A stretch of 20,000 nucleotides of DNA from the sequence record SRR31156797_961. One strand, 5' to 3'. Shown piece by piece: positions 1,902 to 18,456 of this stretch. A program made the translations under genes and the position numbers. The notes under the pieces were generated by a model. The model did no database searches. It saw only the letters and a program-made list of their open reading frames with translations, and was not told the DNA's origin. Numbering within the stretch: the stretch's first letter is position 1; the number at the start of each line of letters is the position of its first letter.

Positions 1902-4661
1902 TCATTTGAGTACCACCTTTTTCATGCAACCGCCTGCTTCATTTTCAATCCAGAAAAAGTAAATGCCTTTGGGTTGCGATGCTATGTTGATCTCGGTATC
2001 CGAAGTTATTTGGGTTTCCTGAACCGTTTGCCCCTTGGTATTCAGGATGGTGAGTCTGGCGGGATTTCCTGTTTTGCTTAATGAAATATTGAACCGGCCA
2101 CTACCCGGATTTGGAAATACCTGAACTGCAGATACGGTTGATGCATCAGCCCCGGTACTGAAAATTTTCCCGGGTAATACGGTTTCCCAAAGCCCCCGCC
2201 CAAAAGTGCCGGCACGCAGTTTTTGGCCGGTATAATTCACCTCTAACCAGTTTACAATCACGGCAGGGAGGTTTTCCGAAAACGGCTCCCATTGATCCAT
2301 GTCTGCATCCCTGAAATATACACCCACATCCGTTCCCACAAAAAGAGCATCATCACTTCCGTTTACATGAACAATGCAATTTACCGGCAGATTGGGCAGC
2401 CCTTCGTTCATGTCAGTCCAGTTTAATCCGTCGAAAATCTTCACTTTATAATTCTGGAGGTAACCACTGTAAGAAACCCATATTTTTTCAGGATTGGAGC
2501 TGCTAACGGCAATGTCGGTTACAAAATAGGTTCCATCTTCATTTCCGGGTGTTGGCGGGGTGATGTCTGTCCAGCCTGAAGCATTCAGGCCCCCTCCGGA
2601 GTTTGTTTGGAAAACCCTTACCGCATCAAAATCGGTTACCCAGCTATCCAGCTTGACAGATGAAAAATAAATGTAATCCGGATTAGCTGGTGCAATTTCC
2701 AAAGCATAAATGGCGCTGTTGAAGTTGTTCCAGCCTTCGGGTAAAATGGTGTTAACATCGGTAATTTTGTACCAGTCGGCTGGCACGGAGGCAGGGGCAT
2801 CATCCACTTTCCAGAGGTTTATCCTGGCCTGAAAAAGCGTTTTGTTGTTAAAGGGATCGGCAACCAGTGAAGCGCCAAACCAGGAGGATTCGTTTACAGC
2901 AGGATCATAGCCAATCATACTGAAATCCCACTTGGGATTTTCAAAGCTTTGACCCGACCGGAAAATGGATCCATTAAACGGATAGCTTACCGTGGCATAC
3001 ATCAGGTTCTGGTCGTCTTTGTCCATAAGGCATTCGAAACCATCAGCATTATTAATTTCGGTGAACCACTTGCCGCCTGTGCGATAGAAAATTCCCAAAT
3101 CCTGACAACCCATCATAACCTGGTCAGGGTCGATGGCTGAGCTTCCCAGGTTGTAAATGGTTGATAACCCCAATCCATTGTTTAGCTCTTCGGTTGAATT
3201 GAATTTGGATTCGGATTCAAAAACCCGCTGATTATAAGCCCGTTTAAAACTACCGCCATCTGTAAATGCTTCGGGTATGTTTAAGTCCTGTTTAAACAGA
3301 CCGCCATCTGTACCCACAAAAAGGACATTTTCTTCCCAGGGTGAAAAGGCAAGCTCATGGTAATCCACGTGCGCGTTCAGGATTAGGATTTTCCACCTTT
3401 CATCAGGATTACTGCAATCCTTGATATAAGGCCTCACGCCGGCAGTATAAAGGGTTTCTGAGTTTGACGGGGATACGACCATTTCATTTCGCCCGCCTGT
3501 GATGGGTGCACGGCCTCCGGAATTAATGGTTGCGTTGAGTTCTGTCCAGGTTTCAAGAGCAATATCATATTGATAGAAATAAAAATGTGAAGCCGATTGC
3601 CAGTTGTAGGGAGGTGGTGTATCGCGGGTCATACAGTTGATGTAGAGGTAGTCACCCTGAGGTGCAACAGCTAAATTGCATACATGCACATATTCTTCGC
3701 CACCAAACTGCGCTGCCCATGGGGTATTTGTGAAATCCAGCCCGCTGCCGGGTAGAGCAATGCGCTGCCATGATCCTGACTGGCCAAGCTGTTCAGAAGA
3801 AATAATATCGGTTCCGGAAGCAAACAGGATATTTAAATCATCAGGATGGAAATCCATATTCCTGATTAATTCGTATTCATTATTCACCGATGGATAGACT
3901 TTGCTCCAGGCCGGATTTTGAGCGTTGCGGTTTTCTGTTCTGAAAATGCCCAGTGAGGTAGCTGCAAATGCAAGGGATTGATTTTGTGGATGCAGCAGCA
4001 CTTTACCGATGGTGAATGCTGTATCCAGGTTGTTCAGGCCTGCCGGCTGCCAGTTTTCGCCGGCATCATCCGACCGGTAAACGCCTATTGACCAGGTCCA
4101 CTCGCTGTCCACATCCCCGGTTCCAAGGAAAATAATTTCAGGATTTTGTGGGTCGGGTGCAATAGATGAAACACCAAGGAAAGGCAGCTGAGAATCGGTG
4201 TTCAGGTTTACCCAGTTTTGTCCGGCATTGTAGCTCACCCAGGCTCCTCCTGATGGCGCCCCAACGTACATCGTATTGGTGTCGGTAGGGTGAAAAGCGA
4301 TGGCGTCGATGCGGCCGGTGCCTCCAAGCCCATTCTTTTTGGGGCCCAGTTCCACCCAGTTGGATTCCAGTTTTTCTGAAGTTCGTTTTTCCGGACAGTA
4401 GTTTTGAAGGTAGTTGTGCTGGTGATTTACTGCTTTGGTGAAATCGTAATCCGGCATCAGCCGTGGCCCCCAGAACTTTTCCAATCTCCTGAACTGGTTG
4501 TGCTCGCTGCTTTCATCGTATTTTCCATTATCCCCGTTAAAATTATTGTAATAGGATTGCTGGATTTCTTCGAAGTTGTGGCCGCAATTCTTTTGTGCAT
4601 TTGCAGTAGGGGCTGCAATCAGGAATATTACAATGAGTAAAATTGTGTTTCCGGGTTTCAT
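1902..4661 (-). CDS. Secreted BNR/VPS10-like beta-propeller protein with T9SS type A sorting domain (919 aa from ATG 4661)
   Basis: Signal peptide MKPGNTILL...ANA/Q. Motifs WVELGP..GTGRIDAIAFHP, Asp-box repeats (SYNAGQNW, SDDAGENW), AGTFGRGLW, and CTD VFPNP...GIYF...KKVVLK. The track's start at 4706 lies next to the upstream terminator and upstream of the -7 box. Confidence 0.88.
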   Translation of the reverse strand: MKPGNTILLIVIFLIAAPTANAQKNCGHNFEEIQQSYYNNFNGDNGKYDESSEHNQFRRLEKFWGPRLMPDYDFTKAVNHQHNYLQNYCPEKRTSEKLESNWVELGPKKNGLGGTGRIDAIAFHPTDTNTMYVGAPSGGAWVSYNAGQNWVNLNTDSQLPFLGVSSIAPDPQNPEIIFLGTGDVDSEWTWSIGVYRSDDAGENWQPAGLNNLDTAFTIGKVLLHPQNQSLAFAATSLGIFRTENRNAQNPAWSKVYPSVNNEYELIRNMDFHPDDLNILFASGTDIISSEQLGQSGSWQRIALPGSGLDFTNTPWAAQFGGEEYVHVCNLAVAPQGDYLYINCMTRDTPPPYNWQSASHFYFYQYDIALETWTELNATINSGGRAPITGGRNEMVVSPSNSETLYTAGVRPYIKDCSNPDERWKILILNAHVDYHELAFSPWEENVLFVGTDGGLFKQDLNIPEAFTDGGSFKRAYNQRVFESESKFNSTEELNNGLGLSTIYNLGSSAIDPDQVMMGCQDLGIFYRTGGKWFTEINNADGFECLMDKDDQNLMYATVSYPFNGSIFRSGQSFENPKWDFSMIGYDPAVNESSWFGASLVADPFNNKTLFQARINLWKVDDAPASVPADWYKITDVNTILPEGWNNFNSAIYALEIAPANPDYIYFSSVKLDSWVTDFDAVRVFQTNSGGGLNASGWTDITPPTPGNEDGTYFVTDIAVSSSNPEKIWVSYSGYLQNYKVKIFDGLNWTDMNEGLPNLPVNCIVHVNGSDDALFVGTDVGVYFRDADMDQWEPFSENLPAVIVNWLEVNYTGQKLRAGTFGRGLWETVLPGKIFSTGADASTVSAVQVFPNPGSGRFNISLSKTGNPARLTILNTKGQTVQETQITSDTEINIASQPKGIYFFWIENEAGGCMKKVVLK

Positions 4662-4681
4662 GGTGGAAATTTTTAGTTCTC

Positions 4682-4689
4682 CAAAATTA
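4682..4689 (-). promoter_or_regulatory. Bacteroidota sigma-A -7 element (TAATTTTG)
   Basis: Exact TAnnTTTG on the minus strand about 20 nt upstream of ATG 4661. Confidence 0.55.
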
Positions 4690-4701
4690 CGATTTCCTGC
4701 A

Positions 4702-4741
4702 AACAAAAAAGGTGGTTTGCACGGATTGGCAAACCACCTTT
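4702..4741 (-). terminator. Intrinsic terminator after the C25 peptidase gene
   Basis: Minus strand reads AAAGGTGGTTTGC-caatccgt-GCAAACCACC-TTTTTTGTTT, about 22 nt after the stop at 4764. Confidence 0.85.
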
Positions 4742-4763: not shown

Positions 4764-7700
4764 TTATTCAACCACTACTTTTTCAACAAAAGTTTTTTCA
4801 TCGGTTTGCATGTGGATGAAATATATTCCTTTTGCGTGTGATGACAGGTCTATCATGGTTTCTGCATATGCAAGTTGATCCAAAATCAACCTTCCGAATG
4901 CGTTGTAAATTTTGAGTTCAGCATTTTCGATGCCTTCCGGGATTGAAATGGTAAACCGGCCCTGGTTAGGATTTGGTGATATGGTGAAATCCTTTTCAGA
5001 AATCTCTTCAAAGCCAGGAGTCAGGTCAATCATAATTTCCAATGATTCAGAAAACGCACTTTCACCACATGCATTTACCGATCTTACATGAAGAAGAGCG
5101 GTACCACTATAACCTGCCGGAAATGAAACTGTGATTTCATTGGTATTTCCATCAATAACACCAGCATCCTCTGGTATAATTTCCCAGATGTATTCCTGGA
5201 TGCCTGTTATTTCAGCAGTGATATAAGTTTCGGTTTGTGGATAATTGGAATTTATAAAAATGGGGCCGTCGGGCATCCCGGGGGTTTGTGGGTTGTCATG
5301 GATATAAAGCATCACGTCATCACTTACCGTTCCTCCACTCATGCCATCGGCAGTAACTGAAAGCATCACCTCGCCGTTCTGGATATCCTGGCTGCCTGGT
5401 GTATACGTTGGTTTCATCATATTTGTGTTATTGAATTCACCGTCACCATTGGTACTCCATGTAATACCCTGCACAAAGTATCCGGTAGCATCGGGCTGGA
5501 AGGTCTCGCCCTGGCATATGTTGCCGTCATCGCCGGCATTCATCGTGGCCTGTGCCAGTGGGGGGAACAGGATAAAGTCGATCCATGCGCAGTCGTTGCC
5601 ACTTTGAACGCCCTGATCTTTTTCATAAGCCCAGCGTAGGGTGTGCATTCCGGCGGGTACAACATATTCAACCAGCTGCCAGGCTTCCTCGCCCGACCAC
5701 TGGCCTTTCAGTGAATTATCTACATAAAAGCTGAGGTAATCGTAGTTGGATTCCGAAGAAACCTTGCGGTAAAACGAAATGGTGTCGGTTTGCAGGATCA
5801 TGATATCCAGCGAAATTTCGCTGTTGGCGTTATTGCCGATTGCACCAGACTTGATGCAGTAGCTTCCTTCCCACGGATCGTCGGTGCAGATCTCCCAGTC
5901 GGCGTTGCCGGAGAATTCCCAGTTGTGGGCTGAGAAGTCTCCGGTTTCGAAATTCTCGCTGATGGTACCCAAATCAAAAGTGTAGTTCCGTGTGATTTGA
6001 TAAGCACCCGCTGAAACATCGGCAAAAACTTTGGCCACATCTCCTGTGGCTGCATCTTCGCTGATCAGCACTTCAAATCCCATGGTGCCGTTTTCGTTCA
6101 CGCCAAGTGCAGGGCAGTCCATCGTTCCGGAAACAACGGTGATAAACTCATTCATGGCTTCCAGTTCCATCACGATATCCGGCGACAGGCAATGGCCCTG
6201 GTTCATCAGTTCAAATTCAAGTATGGCTGTTTCGCCCGGATCAAGCATGCTGTTGCCATTTCCGCCATCAAAATCATCTATCGTAATATTGGTGAAGTTT
6301 AACGCGGGTGCACAGGCAACAATATCAAAATCAGAATTCCAGGTATCCTGACCGATAGCATTAACCTCAATTTCGATGTTATGAAGATCCGGGATGTCAT
6401 CTGCAATAATCACTTCAAAAGCGTTTTCGATGGTGATGATCTGGCCGGGATCAAAATCGCCAAATTCTACGGCAAGGTAGGGGATGTTGATGAAAGGATC
6501 AAGCGAACTCAGTGTAACTGTGACTCCCTCAGCTGATTGGTTTCCTACATTTTCAAGTGACAGGCTCAGCTCGATTGTTTCACCAAAATCTGCTTCACCA
6601 TTGTTATTTCCAGAAGCATCGTTAATTTCAAAAGCATCAAAAATCACATAGGGCTGGTCGGTGATAACGGCAATATTTTCAGTGTACGTTGTTTTGTTGT
6701 GTGCTGTGATGAAAACATCGATGATTTCGTTTGAGGCCAGAGGATAGAAAAATTCAACATCAACGTCACCGGATTCATCAGCCACGCCACGGCCAATAAG
6801 TATCCCGTCCTGTACCAGGCCCACCCGGGCAAATGGCGCGTCAGTTGAAACGCTGATCTCGCCCGAACCGATGGGTAAAGCATCGGGGTGGCTGGCCGAA
6901 ATTGCCGTTGGCTGTGCCGTCCAGATATCCATGGTTGGGTCACCAAACAATGTGATTTCATAGGCACACCAGCGGATGACTCCACTGCTGAGAATCCTTG
7001 CGGTGTTATCCTCACGCGAATCACTGTTGGCAACGCCAATCTGGGTCATATCCTCACCAAAAATGGCATCATAAAATTCACGGTCGAGATATTGTGATGC
7101 GCCATTCGTGTTGCCCGGTGAGTACCAGCCATATCTCGAGTTACCAAGTGTAGCCACTTCGGCTGTGGCAAGCACAGTAATATTTTCGCTAAAACAATCA
7201 CCGGAATATCCACCACCTGATCCGCGGTTATCGAAAGCCCCGTTGTAGCATCCCTGCGAATAGCCAATCACAAATCCACGCGAGATTCCATCATTTTGGA
7301 AATTTGAAACCGTAATGTCATTGTTATACATTTTCATGTTATAACTTGTTGAGCTGTGCCCCAGGTGATTCAGCAGGTGACAACCCACATTGTTGAACTC
7401 ATTGAAAACATCGTTTTTGTTCCAGTTCGACAGTTTCTCGTATAGCTTGTTGATGTTAAAATTATCAGAAACCCCGGCAGTTGTATATCCAAAACTGGAA
7501 CTTCCATAAACAACATCATCTTTGGAATCACCGCCCCAGGTTTGTTCATCAAGGGCTTCACCGACCATAAGCGACATTTCGATGTCTTCAACAACCGGTG
7601 TTTCCTGGTACTTGATTAATTTGTTGATCATATTTGATATTTCGGTTGGCGAGTCCACGCACATCCTGCCTATCATCACCTCGGCATATATGTCTTCTTC

Positions 7701-8726
7701 GCCCGGTTCGCCCCACCAACTGTTGTTGTTGCTGTTCCAGTTGCCGTCGAGACAGCAGTAGTACATGTCGGAAGGTAAATCGTCGTCAACGTTACCGCCG
7801 CCACCTGTTGTAACATAAAATCCACGGTGTGGAACTATCCGGCTACTGGCATTGTTTGGGTCGGCATCGCCACCGAGGATCACGTAAGTAAGGCCATGGT
7901 TTTCATAATAGTCGATGATGCAGTTGCGGATCATCTCCTGATCGTCATCCCCGGGGTAGCTATTGTAAATATCTTCAACGGTTACCACCTGAATGGCAAA
8001 TCCCCGTTCGGTTTTATAATCAATATAGGTCTGGAAAACATCTACAAAACTTTCTTTGGTAATCAGTAGAATATCAATGTTTTCATCGCGGGTAGGAGCG
8101 AATGAATATCCGGAAATCATTTCAGGGTTTTCCACCAGGTTTGCAATGCGCTTTTGCGTGAGTGGGTTTGTGTGTCCCGATCTTATATCAGCCCTGGCGA
8201 TGGGTTCTGTTTCAATTTCGAGGGTGATCTCTTCGAGGCACCTCACCATATTTTGTGCCGGGAAATATTCCATCGGGTTAATTCCTATAACTGCTATGGA
8301 GTAACCACCCAGGAATTGTGTGCTTTGAATACCAATTGTTTTCGCAGGAAAGGGTTGGTCAGTATTGTAAATAGACAAATCAGCCACCGGCCGGTAATTT
8401 GCCGGAGCCGGTTTCGAAATCGGGAACTGGCGGCTGGCAGGCAGGATTTTTATGTTACCGATGTCATTTCTGTAAGTGGCAGATTTAACATGAACGGATT
8501 TGATTTGCGTACCCTGGGGGAGCAGGATTTCAGTGCTGTAGGATGGTAGCAGAGGCTGTCCTTCTTCGCCAAGGTTAAAGCAGTTTTGTAGTTGTGGTTC
8601 AACATACCCATCATATTTTTCGATGAATTTGGGTGTGTGGAAGTTAAAGGTTTGTGTGAGTGTTTGTGCATTCATGCATATGGAAAAAAACATGAACGTT
8701 GAGAGTAGAAAGATTTTAGATTTCAT
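4764..8726 (-). CDS. C25-family (gingipain-like) cysteine peptidase with propeptide, Ig-like/accessory domains and T9SS sorting domain
   Basis: Signal peptide; propeptide GQPLLP; YVILGGD; SDMYY; IGRM; putative catalytic His (NHLGHSS) and Cys (SQGCYNGAFD); LFGDP; CTD ISPNPNQGRF...KGIYF...EKVVVE. Confidence 0.93.
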   Translation of the reverse strand: MKSKIFLLSTFMFFSICMNAQTLTQTFNFHTPKFIEKYDGYVEPQLQNCFNLGEEGQPLLPSYSTEILLPQGTQIKSVHVKSATYRNDIGNIKILPASRQFPISKPAPANYRPVADLSIYNTDQPFPAKTIGIQSTQFLGGYSIAVIGINPMEYFPAQNMVRCLEEITLEIETEPIARADIRSGHTNPLTQKRIANLVENPEMISGYSFAPTRDENIDILLITKESFVDVFQTYIDYKTERGFAIQVVTVEDIYNSYPGDDDQEMIRNCIIDYYENHGLTYVILGGDADPNNASSRIVPHRGFYVTTGGGGNVDDDLPSDMYYCCLDGNWNSNNNSWWGEPGEEDIYAEVMIGRMCVDSPTEISNMINKLIKYQETPVVEDIEMSLMVGEALDEQTWGGDSKDDVVYGSSSFGYTTAGVSDNFNINKLYEKLSNWNKNDVFNEFNNVGCHLLNHLGHSSTSYNMKMYNNDITVSNFQNDGISRGFVIGYSQGCYNGAFDNRGSGGGYSGDCFSENITVLATAEVATLGNSRYGWYSPGNTNGASQYLDREFYDAIFGEDMTQIGVANSDSREDNTARILSSGVIRWCAYEITLFGDPTMDIWTAQPTAISASHPDALPIGSGEISVSTDAPFARVGLVQDGILIGRGVADESGDVDVEFFYPLASNEIIDVFITAHNKTTYTENIAVITDQPYVIFDAFEINDASGNNNGEADFGETIELSLSLENVGNQSAEGVTVTLSSLDPFINIPYLAVEFGDFDPGQIITIENAFEVIIADDIPDLHNIEIEVNAIGQDTWNSDFDIVACAPALNFTNITIDDFDGGNGNSMLDPGETAILEFELMNQGHCLSPDIVMELEAMNEFITVVSGTMDCPALGVNENGTMGFEVLISEDAATGDVAKVFADVSAGAYQITRNYTFDLGTISENFETGDFSAHNWEFSGNADWEICTDDPWEGSYCIKSGAIGNNANSEISLDIMILQTDTISFYRKVSSESNYDYLSFYVDNSLKGQWSGEEAWQLVEYVVPAGMHTLRWAYEKDQGVQSGNDCAWIDFILFPPLAQATMNAGDDGNICQGETFQPDATGYFVQGITWSTNGDGEFNNTNMMKPTYTPGSQDIQNGEVMLSVTADGMSGGTVSDDVMLYIHDNPQTPGMPDGPIFINSNYPQTETYITAEITGIQEYIWEIIPEDAGVIDGNTNEITVSFPAGYSGTALLHVRSVNACGESAFSESLEIMIDLTPGFEEISEKDFTISPNPNQGRFTISIPEGIENAELKIYNAFGRLILDQLAYAETMIDLSSHAKGIYFIHMQTDEKTFVEKVVVE

Positions 8727-9467: not shown

Positions 9468-9839
9468 CTATATGTGTTGATCCACCAGAATGGGATTCCC
9501 ATCCGGGTCAACAACAATAAAACTTGCAGGGCCGGTGGTTTTTTCATCGGCTTCGCTTTCAAATTTAACGCCCTGTTCTTTTATTTTTTTCTGAATTTCC
9601 CGTACATCATCAAAACCTTCAACCGTATTGGCATCCTGATCCCATCCCGGATTGAAGGTCAGGATGTTTCCTTCGAACATGCCCTGGAAAAGTCCGACCA
9701 GTGCATCCCCGTTTTTCATGATCACATAGTTTTGGGTGATGTCTCCACCAAAAATTTCAAAACCCAGTTTTTCGTAAAATGTTTTCGATTTGTGAATGTC
9801 TTTCACATTCAGGCTTACAGAAAAGGCTCCTAGTTTCAT
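9468..9839 (-). CDS. VOC family protein
   Basis: SLNVKDIHKSKTFYEKLGF and SFIVVDPDGNPILVDQH. Confidence 0.92.
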   Translation of the reverse strand: MKLGAFSVSLNVKDIHKSKTFYEKLGFEIFGGDITQNYVIMKNGDALVGLFQGMFEGNILTFNPGWDQDANTVEGFDDVREIQKKIKEQGVKFESEADEKTTGPASFIVVDPDGNPILVDQHI

Positions 9840-9887
9840 ATTTGAATATATTTTAGATTGCTAATTTTCTAGCTTATTTATTCGTGT

Positions 9888-10667
9888 TTATTCCCCCGGA
9901 AAATCCGGCTTTCGTTTTTCGTGGAAGGCTTTTCTGCCTTCAAAATAATCCTTGCTCGTAAATGCCTTAAGACGCAGTTCTTCGATGAACTCAAATGTAG
10001 AAGTGCTTAAGGCTTTGGATTGGGCTATGGCGTTGATTTGTTTTTTGGCCACCGTAACGCTTACCGGGGAATTTTTACTGATCGACGTTGCAAGTTCCCG
10101 CGTAAACGATTCAATTTCTGTGGCTTCAACGAGGTGGTTGAGTGCACCCATCCTCGATGCTTTTTCAGCGGAAATGGGTTTGGCTGTAAAAAACATTTCC
10201 TTGGCCGTTTGAAACCCAAATACCCTGATCACGTGCAAGATGCCTGAAGAATTATAAGCTACTCCCAATTTTGCCGGGGTGATGGCAAAAGTGGTTTTTT
10301 TTGTTCCGATGATAATATCACAAACTGTTGCCAGATCGCAGGCTCCGCCCCAGATGCTGCCTTCTGCCATGGCGATTACCGGTGCCGGAAAATTGGTGAT
10401 GGCACGGAGTGTTTGTTCAAAAGGGTGGGTATAGGTTAAGGGGTCTTTGCCATCTTCGGGCAATTCATCAATGGCCATCCCTGCCGACCACACTTTTGCT
10501 CCGGGATTGGCTCTGATGATCACAACCCGGGCTTTTCCCATTTCAAAATATTTGAGCGCTTCTATAACTTCATTCAGCATTTGTTTGGTCAACGGGTTTC
10601 GGCGCTCATCGTTGTCGAAAGTGATGATTCCGATGTTGTTTTCCAGCGCATGTTTGGTTTGCTTCAT
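9888..10667 (-). CDS. scpB: Methylmalonyl-CoA decarboxylase-like protein (crotonase superfamily)
   Basis: Resembles E. coli ScpB along its length as I recall it: KVWSAG..I.ELP.DGKDPL, EGSIWGGA, TPAKLGVAYN, DYFEGRKAFHEKRKPDF. Confidence 0.75.
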   Translation of the reverse strand: MKQTKHALENNIGIITFDNDERRNPLTKQMLNEVIEALKYFEMGKARVVIIRANPGAKVWSAGMAIDELPEDGKDPLTYTHPFEQTLRAITNFPAPVIAMAEGSIWGGACDLATVCDIIIGTKKTTFAITPAKLGVAYNSSGILHVIRVFGFQTAKEMFFTAKPISAEKASRMGALNHLVEATEIESFTRELATSISKNSPVSVTVAKKQINAIAQSKALSTSTFEFIEELRLKAFTSKDYFEGRKAFHEKRKPDFPGE

Positions 10668-13123: not shown

Positions 13124-13485
13124 TGGCTATATCGGTTGGAGATCAATGCATATAACGAAAGCTCACAATCAAAACTGACTGGGATATTTGCATCAGCATT
13201 AAGCCTGTTAGGATTGCATTTTTTGCTTCATCTTCAGAGATCCCTTTTGACAACAACATCAAATGCCTGCGCTATTTTTTTATGATTTACATTTCGTTAA
13301 CAAAAGAAAAAGATAAAATTTTTCTTCCGTGGATGGAGCTTATACTTAGCACATATCTGGTAAGCAATTGAAAATATTAAAGTTAGATGCAGCTTTTAAA
13401 AATGGCCTCCCGGGATCATATGCATGTATAATTGATGTTTATCAATAAAAAATTGTTAAATGAAAAATCTACCTTCTTTTATATC

Positions 13486-13493
13486 TACATTTG
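13486..13493 (+). promoter_or_regulatory. Bacteroidota -7 element (TACATTTG) of the DUF1573 gene
   Basis: Exact TAnnTTTG 33 nt upstream of ATG 13527. Confidence 0.6.
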
Positions 13494-13526
13494 TCCATCA
13501 ACAAATATTAATTAATCATTGTAAAG

Positions 13527-14087
13527 ATGAACAAAACAATTTTAACAATTCTCCTGTTTTGTTTTGTTGCTTTTTCCGCCGGTGCCCAGGTAGGAAATAA
13601 GCAAACTACCACCGATACTAAAAAAACTTCGGTGGAACAAAGCAAAATACAAAAAGAGAAATTGGCCAAACAGCGGGCGGCGGAGGCCAGTCAGGTCAAT
13701 CCGCAGGTAAACAATCCAAATGCACCTGTTATCAAGTTTGATAAGATGGAGCATGATTATGGAACACTTGCTTATGAGGCTGATGGTAACTGTGAGTTTA
13801 AATTCACCAACGAAGGTAAAGAGCCATTAATTCTTACCAACGTTAAGGCGAGTTGAGGCTGCACTATTCCAGCATGGCCAAGGGAGCCTGTATTACCTGG
13901 TAAATCTGAGGTTATAGTCGTCAGATACAATACCAAAAAGGTAGGAACAATAAACAAAAGAATAACAGTATATTCAAATGCAACTGAATCTCCAATTGTA
14001 TTGAGGATTAAAGGAAAAGTTGTGAAAGCCCCTGCTAATACTATACCTGAAAATGGTAGCAGTGGAGCACCTGTAAAGAAAAGATAA
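13527..14087 (+). CDS. DUF1573 domain exported protein with in-frame TGA (13854-13856) at a conserved Cys; candidate selenoprotein, 186 aa
   Basis: Read-through translation: ...FKFTNEGKEPLILTNVKAS-[TGA]-GCTIPAWPREPVLPGKSEVIVVRYNTKKVGTINKRITVYSNATESPIVLRIKGKVVKAPANTIPENGSSGAPVKKR-TAA. This matches the DUF1573 pattern F.F.N.G..PL.I..V..SCGCT.P.W...PI.PG. Signal peptide at the N-terminus. Confidence 0.85.
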
Positions 14088-14102
14088 GTAATAAACCATT
14101 TT

Positions 14103-14144
14103 AAAAAAAAAAGCCGGGATTACCAATAATCCCGGCTTTTTTTT
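14103..14144. terminator. Bidirectional intrinsic terminator
   Basis: A10-GCCGGGATTA-ccaa-TAATCCCGGC-T8, starting 15 nt after TAA 14087, between the convergent DUF1573 and yfcC genes. Confidence 0.93.
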
Positions 14145-14359
14145 GCCTTTGGTTGATTGGAAGAATGGAATGACAAGAGGATGGTATGGCGGGTAAAATA
14201 AATTTAAATGATCACCATAAACCATGCTTCTATTATTAGATTTTATTGATGTCTGATTCCTTGCTTTGCATCTTCAAGGTTAAAGTTTGGATTAGAAATT
14301 TTTGATATGGGCATCTTAAACAAATTTATGCCAATCCCGGAGGGTACAACCCTCTATCT

Positions 14360-17485: not shown

Positions 17486-17947
17486 TTATTCATCTAAGTT
17501 CACGTAGGTGTAAACCAATTCCCGCCTGTTCCAGCAGCGATTTGGGCTGATGTAATAATCCAGTTGGCTGCAATATTCAGGTTCTTCAGTTTTTTGAACG
17601 GAAGTATTTTCGGCGGTCTGCATGATTTCAGGCTTCTGATCTGTACGATTGAAAAAAGCGATTGAAGCTGCAATCAGAATCAGGATGGCTGCGGCAACCT
17701 TCCACCATCGCCGTATAAACAGATTTCGCTTATTACCGGGTTGTGGCAATGAATTGAGGTCGGGAATTTCAACCGCACCAGCCGGATCAAGGGAGCCAAT
17801 GGCCTCCAGTGTATCCCGGCGCTTTGCAAGTACTTCTTCCAGTCTGCGTTTTAAATCCGGCTCTTGAAAGAGCTTTTCTTCGAATGCTTTTCTTTCTTCA
17901 TTCGAAAGTTCGTTGTCTAAGTATTTTAAAATGTCCTGTTCATGCAT
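17486..17947 (-). CDS. Membrane-anchored anti-sigma factor (153 aa)
   Basis: ILKYLDNELSNEERKAFEEKL anti-sigma domain and TM segment WWKVAAAILILIAAS. ATG 17947 overlaps the sigma stop (ATGCATGA). Confidence 0.85.
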   Translation of the reverse strand: MHEQDILKYLDNELSNEERKAFEEKLFQEPDLKRRLEEVLAKRRDTLEAIGSLDPAGAVEIPDLNSLPQPGNKRNLFIRRWWKVAAAILILIAASIAFFNRTDQKPEIMQTAENTSVQKTEEPEYCSQLDYYISPNRCWNRRELVYTYVNLDE

Positions 17948-18443
17948 GATTTTCCTGTTTTTTGATGGTAGCTGATAAACCTTCAATAATCCGCCACAGT
18001 GTTTTGCCAATGGATTGCTCTTTTATTCCGGTTGCTTCGGCCATTTCGCGGTATGACAACCCATCCTTGTACATCATGATCAGCAATCGTTTTTTGGGCT
18101 CCAGTCCTGAAATTGCTTGCCTCACCCGATCCCGTTTCTCGTTTTCGATCATTTCGGCTTCCGGGTTGGAACGCTCCACCTTGTCAGCTTCCAAATGTTT
18201 ATTTCTGTCGAGATGAAGCTTGTTTTTCGAAAGTTCGTTCAGGCAAAGGTTTCCGGCTACTTTGTAAAGCCATGCCCTCGGATTTTCGATGGGCTGATTC
18301 TTGTGGTTCTGTCTGTCCAACATTTTTAAGAACGTATCCTGCGCAACATCCAAAGCGGGTTCACGGCTGCCGAGCATCCGGTAGCAGAATTTGTAAATCT
18401 GCTCATAATGTTTTCTGTAAATCGCTTCCAATATTTCGTGCAA
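17940..18443 (-). CDS. ECF RNA polymerase sigma-70 factor
   Basis: Region 2 (DVAQDTFLK...RAWLYKVAGNLCLNELS) and region 4 (GLSYREMAEATGI). TTG start. Confidence 0.93.
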   Translation of the reverse strand: MHEILEAIYRKHYEQIYKFCYRMLGSREPALDVAQDTFLKMLDRQNHKNQPIENPRAWLYKVAGNLCLNELSKNKLHLDRNKHLEADKVERSNPEAEMIENEKRDRVRQAISGLEPKKRLLIMMYKDGLSYREMAEATGIKEQSIGKTLWRIIEGLSATIKKQENHA

Positions 18444-18456
18444 TTGATGTTGCTTT

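Follow-up and report, generated by a model that had tools for sequence, protein, structure and literature searches.

Selenoproteins that carry a DUF1573 domain have been in print since 2007, when OS_HP2 was first described, from deltaproteobacterial worm symbionts, as a new selenoprotein family of the Olavius symbiont metagenome, with two selenoproteins listed in Table 2 of that paper (Zhang and Gladyshev, 2007, PMC1976440). The GOS paper of 2008 (PMC2398784) equates OS_HP2 with pfam07610, gives its motif as UxC and counts two Sec and 354 Cys sequences, and tables in reviews of 2022 and 2026 give the motif of OS_HP2/pfam07610 as UGC. NCBIfam holds a model, NF041425 ('OS_HP2 family (seleno)protein'), with a cut-off of 100 bits. 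An earlier sequence-only reading of the DNA studied here had left it undecided whether Sec forms of DUF1573 were catalogued, and this record shows that they are. In the literature we found no description of a DUF1573 selenoprotein from Bacteroidales, and the main texts of BSepDB and deep-Sep contain neither 'Bacteroid' nor 'DUF1573'; their supplements, and the BSepDB website, may list such genes.

Here we examine a DUF1573 gene in a 20,000-nt stretch of DNA from sequence record SRR31156797_961 (hereafter the window), and we are confident that the UGA at its codon 110 is decoded as selenocysteine in a real selenoprotein gene. The gene is of the known DUF1573/OS_HP2 selenoprotein kind, in a Bacteroidales subclade beyond the reach of NF041425: against that model the window protein scores 49.4 bits, under the cut-off of 100, and other members of its clade, together with sister forms, score 51.9–58.4 bits. 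A two-domain gene of a Bacteroidales genome that we call G288 (locus L156), with U at the same site, scores 115.3 bits and passes the cut-off, so that OS_HP2-type selenoproteins are present, and recognisable, in this order.

Read directly from the letters, the gene is a single 186-codon plus-strand frame from an ATG to the TAA at 14085–14087, and its sole interruption is the TGA, in the context gcg agt TGA ggc tgc act (A-S-U-G-C-T), after which 76 further codons precede the TAA (Table 1). Re-reading thus bears out both the open frame past the TGA and the 186-residue read-through product that had been claimed, with U at codon 110 and the TAA following the last codon. Gene calling under table 11 yields a 109-residue product at this locus. 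The −7 box noted earlier is present as the letters TAcaTTTG, which we take to fit the Bacteroidetes consensus TAnnTTTG and to mark a putative promoter, and the strong terminator said to follow the TAA can be seen as a terminator-like hairpin with a T-run. Elsewhere in the window TGA is an ordinary stop, because at least six ORFs end on it and none occurs within two long ORFs, of 934 and 1320 codons; the six comprise the five (1902, 10796, 13123, 16279 and 17940) on which the sequence-only reading had based its correct statement that UGA is not globally reassigned, and a further one at 18456. The neighbouring genes, which include one for a C25 peptidase and one for another protein with type-IX-secretion sorting domains, place the window in Bacteroidota. 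Gene neighbourhood is not conserved, in that tblastn of 13 window ORFs against the loci of nine relatives recovered the DUF1573 gene and two unrelated weak matches, and context therefore gives no hint of function.

Table 1. Features of the DUF1573 gene and its flanks, in window coordinates.
Feature	Position	Strand	Basis
Bacteroidetes-type −7 promoter-box look-alike, TAcaTTTG	13486..13493	+	letters present, 34 nt upstream of ATG
Selenoprotein CDS (very probable)	13527..14087	+	186 codons + TAA; frame and C-terminus common to 11 other distinct full-length TGA-bearing sequences
Predicted signal peptide, residues 1–20, MNKTILTILLFCFVAFSAGA, then Q	13527..13586	+	basic N-terminus, hydrophobic core, small residues before Q21
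K/E/Q-rich helical linker, residues 32–55 (predicted)	13620..13691	+	AF2 helix
DUF1573 / ASH-PapD-like Ig domain, residues 69–165	13731..14021	+	Pfam, AF2, Foldseek
UGA very probably read as selenocysteine (U110), first Cys of S-C-G-C-T motif	13854..13856	+	sequence and alignment
Frozen synonymous sites, codons 111–145, candidate SECIS-containing region	13857..13961	+	codon invariance, dS, fold z
Candidate small bulged hairpin CA-U-GGC / GCC-UG, 7-nt loop	13873..13890	+	proposed from alignments, at canonical SECIS distance
Candidate long-range helix, 13891–13902 with 13931–13949, enclosing variable inner hairpin	13891..13949	+	RNAalifold, 12 sequences
Intrinsic-terminator-like hairpin and T-run	14105..14144	+	18 pairs, 6 G-C, then TTTTTTTT; 3' of true stop

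A TGA in the middle of a domain raises the question of whether it belongs to the gene at all, and its distribution among relatives speaks to this directly. When TGA and TGY were tabulated at this codon, a scan of species-representative genomes gave 35 loci, four with TGA (L001–L004), 28 with C-G-C and three that are unscorable, and a scan of JGI metagenomes gave 36, with TGA in nine (L059–L066, L068) and Cys in 27; the TGA is thus not unique to one strain. The four genome loci lie in Bacteroidales MAGs at 61–72% identity, and each has its TGA at the same codon and a frame open to the same C-terminus. Together the window and its relatives supply 12 distinct full-length Bacteroidales TGA coding sequences, at 61–74% protein and 73–80% nucleotide identity to the window, and no second stop or frameshift occurs in any of them. 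Wherever the DNA of a relative at 61% identity or more was readable, the TGA stands at the identical codon; at about 57% identity and below, Cys forms predominate. Five more distant genes also have TGA at the same motif, always in place of the first Cys of C-G-C.

At the protein level, the column of U110 holds C in 110 of the best 120 database proteins, W in seven and R in one, while two entries break off at residue 109, and an alignment of 116 sequences shows hardly any variation at C110; the UGA does then fall, as had been proposed, on the conserved Cys of the S-C-G-C-T motif of DUF1573. The prediction that gene callers would truncate such genes holds for the two entries that stop at residue 109. 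In the seven others W is most simply explained by code-4 gene calls on short contigs.

Independent assemblies agree with the window at this codon. A contig of one run (X1), possibly from the source sample, matches the locus at a word depth of 362 with zero differences, and contigs of two further runs (X2, X3), from relatives in two other studies, cover 13854–13856 with no other letter recorded at the TGA. The one contig from an RNA library (X6), also from a relative, covers 13667–13822, upstream of the UGA. A single-base sequencing or assembly error, by which TGC or TGT was misread as TGA, finds no support in the data; it would have to recur in assemblies of different projects and in the contigs of three runs, and its probability is practically nil. 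Since the TGA is common to distinct relatives and to independent assemblies, sequencing error and a strain-specific nonsense mutation are both excluded. The broader possibility of a recent nonsense mutation or a pseudogene, with the frame behind the TGA as a mere leftover, could draw on the 109-residue product of table 11 calling and on the two database entries that end exactly there, but the TGA is found in 12 distinct full-length coding sequences, those of the relatives differing from the window at 20–27% of nucleotides, and in the five distant genes, and downstream frame, length and C-terminus are kept throughout; we regard decay of this sort as exceedingly unlikely.

Selection on the downstream codons points the same way. 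Across 11 sequence pairs, dN/dS over codons 111–166 is 0.20–0.57; relative to the upstream domain half, dN is much the same and dS about halved, and the codons behind the TGA, which had been singled out for a comparison of dN/dS before and after it, are under purifying selection, as would not be expected of a pseudogene. The low dS has a counterpart in codon usage. Of the columns that hold one degenerate amino acid throughout, 14 of 20 over codons 111–145 also hold a single codon, as against 12 of 51 over the rest of the gene (Fisher p = 7e-4); for the upstream domain half the figure is two of 22. In 21 distinct Cys-form homologues, P121, L123, P124, G125, T136 and G140 are each encoded by three to four codons, in a control that is imperfectly matched insofar as the Cys set is more diverged than the TGA set. 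Only TGA forms show the synonymous freeze, which is what an overlapping SECIS-like RNA would be expected to produce.

Unusually conserved synonymous sites would also be expected if termination at UGA110 were intended, the 109-residue fragment being the functional product and the downstream sequence being kept for RNA reasons only. Against this, the downstream amino acids follow the DUF1573 profile to its final position and include family-invariant residues, dN/dS in this stretch is below 1, and a stop at codon 110 would, according to the predicted fold, halve the beta-sandwich. We therefore consider intended termination very improbable, and return to the reading of UGA110 as selenocysteine.

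Decoding of UGA110 would proceed through the bacterial Sec system, in which tRNA-Sec(UCA), charged through SelA and SelD, would be brought to the codon by SelB. We assessed this machinery in eight genomes that carry TGA-form DUF1573, all of them relatives of the window organism. In seven (G001, G003, G004, G085, G207, G277 and G288) ARAGORN identifies tRNA-SeC(tca), and selA and selB are both above their cut-offs; in G001, G003 and G004 the tRNA-SeC is clustered with selA and selB, and selD, searched for in G001–G005, is above cut-off in the same three genomes. The eighth, G002, has an intact selB, a selA and a selD broken by stops and frameshifts, and a selC homologue with indels that ARAGORN rejects. 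Assembly error is a plausible cause of these broken genes, poor assembly and real decay being indistinguishable in this case.

The co-occurrence gains weight from the distribution of these genes in the order at large. A survey of 2006 detected no Sec-decoding trait in Bacteroidetes, and the sequence-only reading had held Sec use to be uncommon in the phylum. Of 401 genomes sampled from this order, 343 contain relatives of the window protein, and selA is above cut-off in only 46; that claim needs qualifying, since within the order Sec use is not especially rare. Among the matches listed (150 of 560), at least four genomes (G001, G085, G207 and G277) have one TGA form each, and all four are selA-positive; the hypergeometric chance of four out of four falling among the 46 is about 1.5e-4, by our own arithmetic and with relatedness ignored. 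The DUF1573 matches listed for the 46 selA-positive genomes (150 of 196) add G288, with two TGA forms. These counts of TGA forms are lower bounds, from a sampling of selA-negative genomes that was non-exhaustive.

A second likely selenoprotein in these genomes, a secreted protein of thioredoxin fold that bears the motif FFSTxUGxC and ends in a type-IX sorting-like sequence, indicates that their Sec system is in use; these candidates came from AhpC-TSA matches only. No in-frame stop was found in the molybdopterin enzymes (PF00384) of G001–G005, and Rdx/SelW (PF10262), sought as a second source of SECIS elements, gave no match. G001–G004 each contain one or two Cys DUF1573 paralogues beside the Sec form, and in the G002 MAG another gene, too, is frameshifted.

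These data also bear on a selenium-free read-through of the UGA, whether through suppression by a near-cognate Trp or Cys tRNA, aided by RNA structure, or through a lineage-wide reassignment. The W at this site in seven database gene calls, a conserved downstream structure that does not resemble a textbook SECIS, and the TGA form of G002 beside an apparently broken selA and selD would all fit such a reading. Reassignment is at odds with the TGA stops and the long TGA-free ORFs of the window, and read-through of either kind does not account for a codon that replaces a nearly invariant family Cys, which is the Sec signature, or for tRNA-Sec, selA and selB in seven of eight carrier genomes against selA in 46 of 401 in the order. 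We leave it a small chance. The core of the sequence-only reading, a Sec-decoded UGA in a secreted DUF1573 protein, is instead supported by conservation of the TGA, by selection, and by the co-occurrence of selA, selB and selC in relatives.

Delivery of Sec to UGA110 would be directed by an RNA element in the coding region just 3' of the codon, of which the fold proposed here is a candidate. The 107 nt from the UGA onward fold with z = −2.37; the 81 nt proximal to it, with z = 0.06, fold no better than shuffles. The two frozen synonymous blocks are complementary to each other, and RNAalifold on 12 sequences pairs 13889–13902 with 13931–13949, a long-range helix that is also found in the single-sequence MFE fold of 11 of the 12. 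Its double-sided changes are U:A to C:G in G207 and A:U / G:C at 13902:13931; in the distant G277 form this helix is unalignable. Closer to the UGA, a small bulged hairpin (13873–13890) lies at the distance at which the loops of bacterial SECIS elements are usually found. It pairs in 92.9% of alignment cells and shows one double-sided change, A:U to U:A in G277, and it is weak, at −3.2 kcal/mol and, in three sequences, −0.4.

Covariation over the 12 close sequences is not significant, since 48 of 500 shuffles reach it. When three distant Sec forms are added, double-sided changes appear in three pairs, a number that 5 of 500 shuffles attain, and none of the 500 attains the covariation score, for a structure that was drawn after inspection of the same sequences and with a warning about relatedness from the tool. 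Another candidate, a UGA-proximal stem that RNAalifold had proposed on five sequences, was rejected when uncompensated mismatches appeared on 12, pair 12:39 being unpaired in five and pair 14:37 in six of 11 distinct rows. The FFSTxUGxC gene, for its part, has a solid hairpin of 8–10 bp that begins 16 nt after its UGA. In our judgement the UGA forms in all likelihood contain an RNA element of their own, and we offer the hairpins named here as candidates for the part that would bind SelB.

The product of the gene would be a precursor, 186 residues long, of a selenoprotein that is secreted or lodged in the envelope. A20 and Q21 hardly vary across 116 homologues and the AF2 model has a helix at residues 5–19, from which we infer that the N-terminus is a signal peptide with a conserved A-Q junction. 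With this peptide removed, the mature protein would consist of a helical linker rich in K, E and Q and of one ASH/PapD-like Ig beta-sandwich, the DUF1573 domain. The linker is present throughout the orthogroup, as distinct from short DUF1573 paralogues that do without it. PF07610 (DUF1573) matches residues 69–165 over profile positions 1–98 of 98, right across the TGA, with 117.3 bits against a gathering threshold of 26.1 (E = 3.3e-34), and PF22544 also matches the domain (E = 3.7e-14). The AF2 model, built from the 116 homologues, has a mean pLDDT of 84.7, rising to 93–98 per 10-residue block across the domain, and forms a beta-sandwich over residues 67–166 in which U110-G-C112 sits at the turn between strands 103–108 and 113–116; W117, P118, P121, P124, G125 and Y134 are among the family-invariant residues downstream of U110. 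Foldseek matches the model, with probability 1.00, to PapD-like domains of HYDIN (2e6j and 2ys4), to Porphyromonas gingivalis 2qsv and to the Ig domains of VesB/VesC; for 2e6j, E is 1.8e-8 and target-normalised TM 0.73. A search of solved structures by sequence gave no match to the window protein.

An additional Cys, at position 89, is V in L059 and S in L001, and since it is not retained in all Sec forms, the U/C-G-C pair is the candidate active site. Sec/Cys pairs reportedly mark redox-active residues, an argument associated with Zhang and Gladyshev, and it is on this that our best guess at the chemistry is based: the U-G-C site, at its turn between two strands, would most likely act as a selenylsulfide/selenol redox centre, with a soft-metal site as the alternative. 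In the literature on DUF1573 we found no functional account of the domain.

How often Sec arose at this site can be approached from the phylogeny. A tree of 80 proteins groups 16 Sec forms in one clade (SH-aLRT 99), and three W forms constitute a second group within the same polytomy as the Cys forms; because the W group sits apart, in that polytomy, at least two changes of state are needed. Along with the G277 and G288 forms, this tree suggests that Cys may have been replaced by Sec repeatedly at this one position. Joining this with the RNA data yields a wider reading, which we put forward tentatively and think rather doubtful as a whole. In it, the clade uses an atypical two-part SECIS outside current bacterial models: the small, weak hairpin with its bulge, at the distance usual for a SECIS, would stack on a conserved long-range hairpin of about 60 nt with its apex about 60 nt from the UGA. 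Sec would also have taken the place of the first Cys of C-G-C on several independent occasions, once each in the long-linker clade and the short form of G277 and, in G288, in both the lipoprotein-like and the two-domain form. If this were so, the atypical SECIS would help to explain why selenoprotein finders and the NCBI pipeline miss the subclade, and recurrent replacement would single out this position as the catalytic centre in an envelope family that is very common.

Family, motif and mechanism being already in print, no new kind of biology is at issue here, and the lineage and subclade are the new part. DUF1573 is very common in Bacteroidales, as the survey of the order shows. A Sec/Cys pair points strongly to a redox-active or metal-binding residue, and these genes thereby suggest a target for mutagenesis and a chemistry to look for in assays of the family. 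In all entries examined the subclade is mis-annotated, as 109-residue truncations or with W, and because its scores do not reach the threshold of the NCBI selenoprotein model, annotation pipelines overlook it, so that counts of the Bacteroidales selenoproteome are likely too low.

Set beside the systems that it most resembles, the window gene combines familiar parts in its own way. Its predicted fold is like that of the ASH/PapD-like Ig domains (2e6j, 2ys4, 2qsv and VesB/VesC), with target-normalised TM scores of 0.41–0.73 and rmsd of 2.4–3.6 over 101–112 columns; it differs from them in sequence, at 15–20% identity, and the titles of those entries mention neither Cys-x-Cys nor Sec. The SECIS of fdhF type in E. 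coli sits within the coding sequence, immediately 3' of the UGA, and the element proposed for the window shares this placement, together with a small hairpin whose 5' arm bears a bulged U and whose loop is about 25–31 nt from the U of the UGA. The likeness ends with the stem, which in the window has merely five pairs and is weak, and with the second conserved hairpin, of about 60 nt, that follows it.

The Bacteroidales Cys-form DUF1573 proteins (L005, which is P0014, and P0007/P0008) are 50–61% identical to the window protein and share its architecture, the S-x-G-C-T motif and the C-terminal tail, but have TGY for TGA, and their downstream synonymous sites are unfrozen. With OS_HP2 the gene shares the Pfam domain pfam07610, many Cys homologues and Sec at the first Cys of C-x-C, the identity of the site resting on the motif, and it is set apart by its predicted signal peptide, helical linker and single domain and by its Bacteroidales clade. 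Behind the UGA of the OS_HP2-type gene of G288 we read, by eye, a compact hairpin (GGUUAG-CAAAA-CUAACC), from which the candidate RNA of the window differs.

The C-terminal tail of the DUF1573 selenoprotein in the window (14022-14084) and of its homologues carries a conserved end motif, P-E-K ... (A/T/S)-P-V-(N/K)-K, which is common to the Sec (TGA) and Cys (TGY) forms of the orthogroup. A single homologue, the 146-aa database protein P0105, has arginine at the Sec/Cys position (K-S-S-R-G-C-S); this could reflect a CGA codon derived from TGA, or an error.

Among the relatives' genomes, the selC-selA-selB-selD region of G002 (L048, L053 and L058; G002:C5:46957-52044) contains many stops and frameshifts, and both the variable arm and the T arm of its tRNA-Sec homologue carry indels. 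Despite this damage, the DUF1573 gene of G002 keeps both its TGA and an intact frame; the state of the sel region reflects either assembly error or recent loss of the Sec trait. SelD appears to be fused to another domain in G001 and G004, because the matches sit inside open frames as long as 739 residues in G001 and 762 in G004 (see table). A second selD of ordinary length adjoins selA and selB in these two genomes.

Elsewhere in the window, two large secreted proteins with type-IX secretion C-terminal sorting domains are encoded side by side, one of them a C25 peptidase. An overlapping pair of ORFs, of which the member at 17486-18010 gave no match in a Pfam scan, may be one gene broken by a frameshift, or just two separate small genes. 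Five sequencing runs labelled as hypersaline or salt-lake metagenomes (X2, X3, X4, X7 and X8) each share a small part of the words sampled from window 13400-14200. For X2 and X3, where contigs were compared, the runs contain relatives that are 85-95% alike, not the window's organism.

The relatives' genomes also hold another candidate selenoprotein, a secreted protein of ~270 residues with an AhpC/TSA-thioredoxin fold. In these candidates (L121-L123) the TGA lies within an FFST-x-U-G-x-C motif, a hairpin of 8-10 bp starts 16 nt 3' of the UGA, and the C-terminal region resembles a sorting domain for type-IX secretion. The G002 copy, which has a frameshift downstream, lies ~6 kb away from the DUF1573 Sec gene of that genome.

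Features in the window and in relatives' genomes
Feature	Location	Strand	Details
AhpC/TSA-type candidate L121	G004:C43:25300-27300	-	
AhpC/TSA-type candidate L122	G005:C2:85600-87600	-	
AhpC/TSA-type candidate L123	G002:C18:97300-99300	+	
DUF1573 TGA gene L155	G288:C199:2900-4400	-	150 residues; lipoprotein-like, ...FFAC near N-terminus
DUF1573 TGA gene L156	G288:C3:30400-32600	-	385 residues; two-domain
Tandem short DUF1573 genes L154	G277:C42:9400-11100	one strand	matches 9613-9906 and 10113-10406
SelD match	G001:C102:47954-48874		in long open frame
SelD match	G004:C57:93525-94442		in long open frame
C25 (gingipain-family) peptidase	window 4764-8726	-	1320 residues; propeptide, Ig-like and PKD-like domains
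Secreted protein	window 1902-4706	-	934 residues; weak Sortilin/Vps10-like match
Overlapping ORF pair	window 17486-18010 and 17940-18443	both -	71-nt overlap, different frames

Further TGA forms occur within DUF1573 itself. In a tandem pair in G277, the motif holds Cys in the first gene and TGA in the second, an arrangement suggestive of a duplication with one copy in each state. The single genome G288 holds two additional DUF1573 genes, in both of which TGA stands in place of the first Cys of C-G-C. In the two-domain gene of G288, a compact hairpin (GGUUAG-CAAAA-CUAACC) lies ~12 nt 3' of the UGA, and the product scores 115.3 bits against the NCBIfam model NF041425, 'OS_HP2 family (seleno)protein', over its cut-off of 100 bits.
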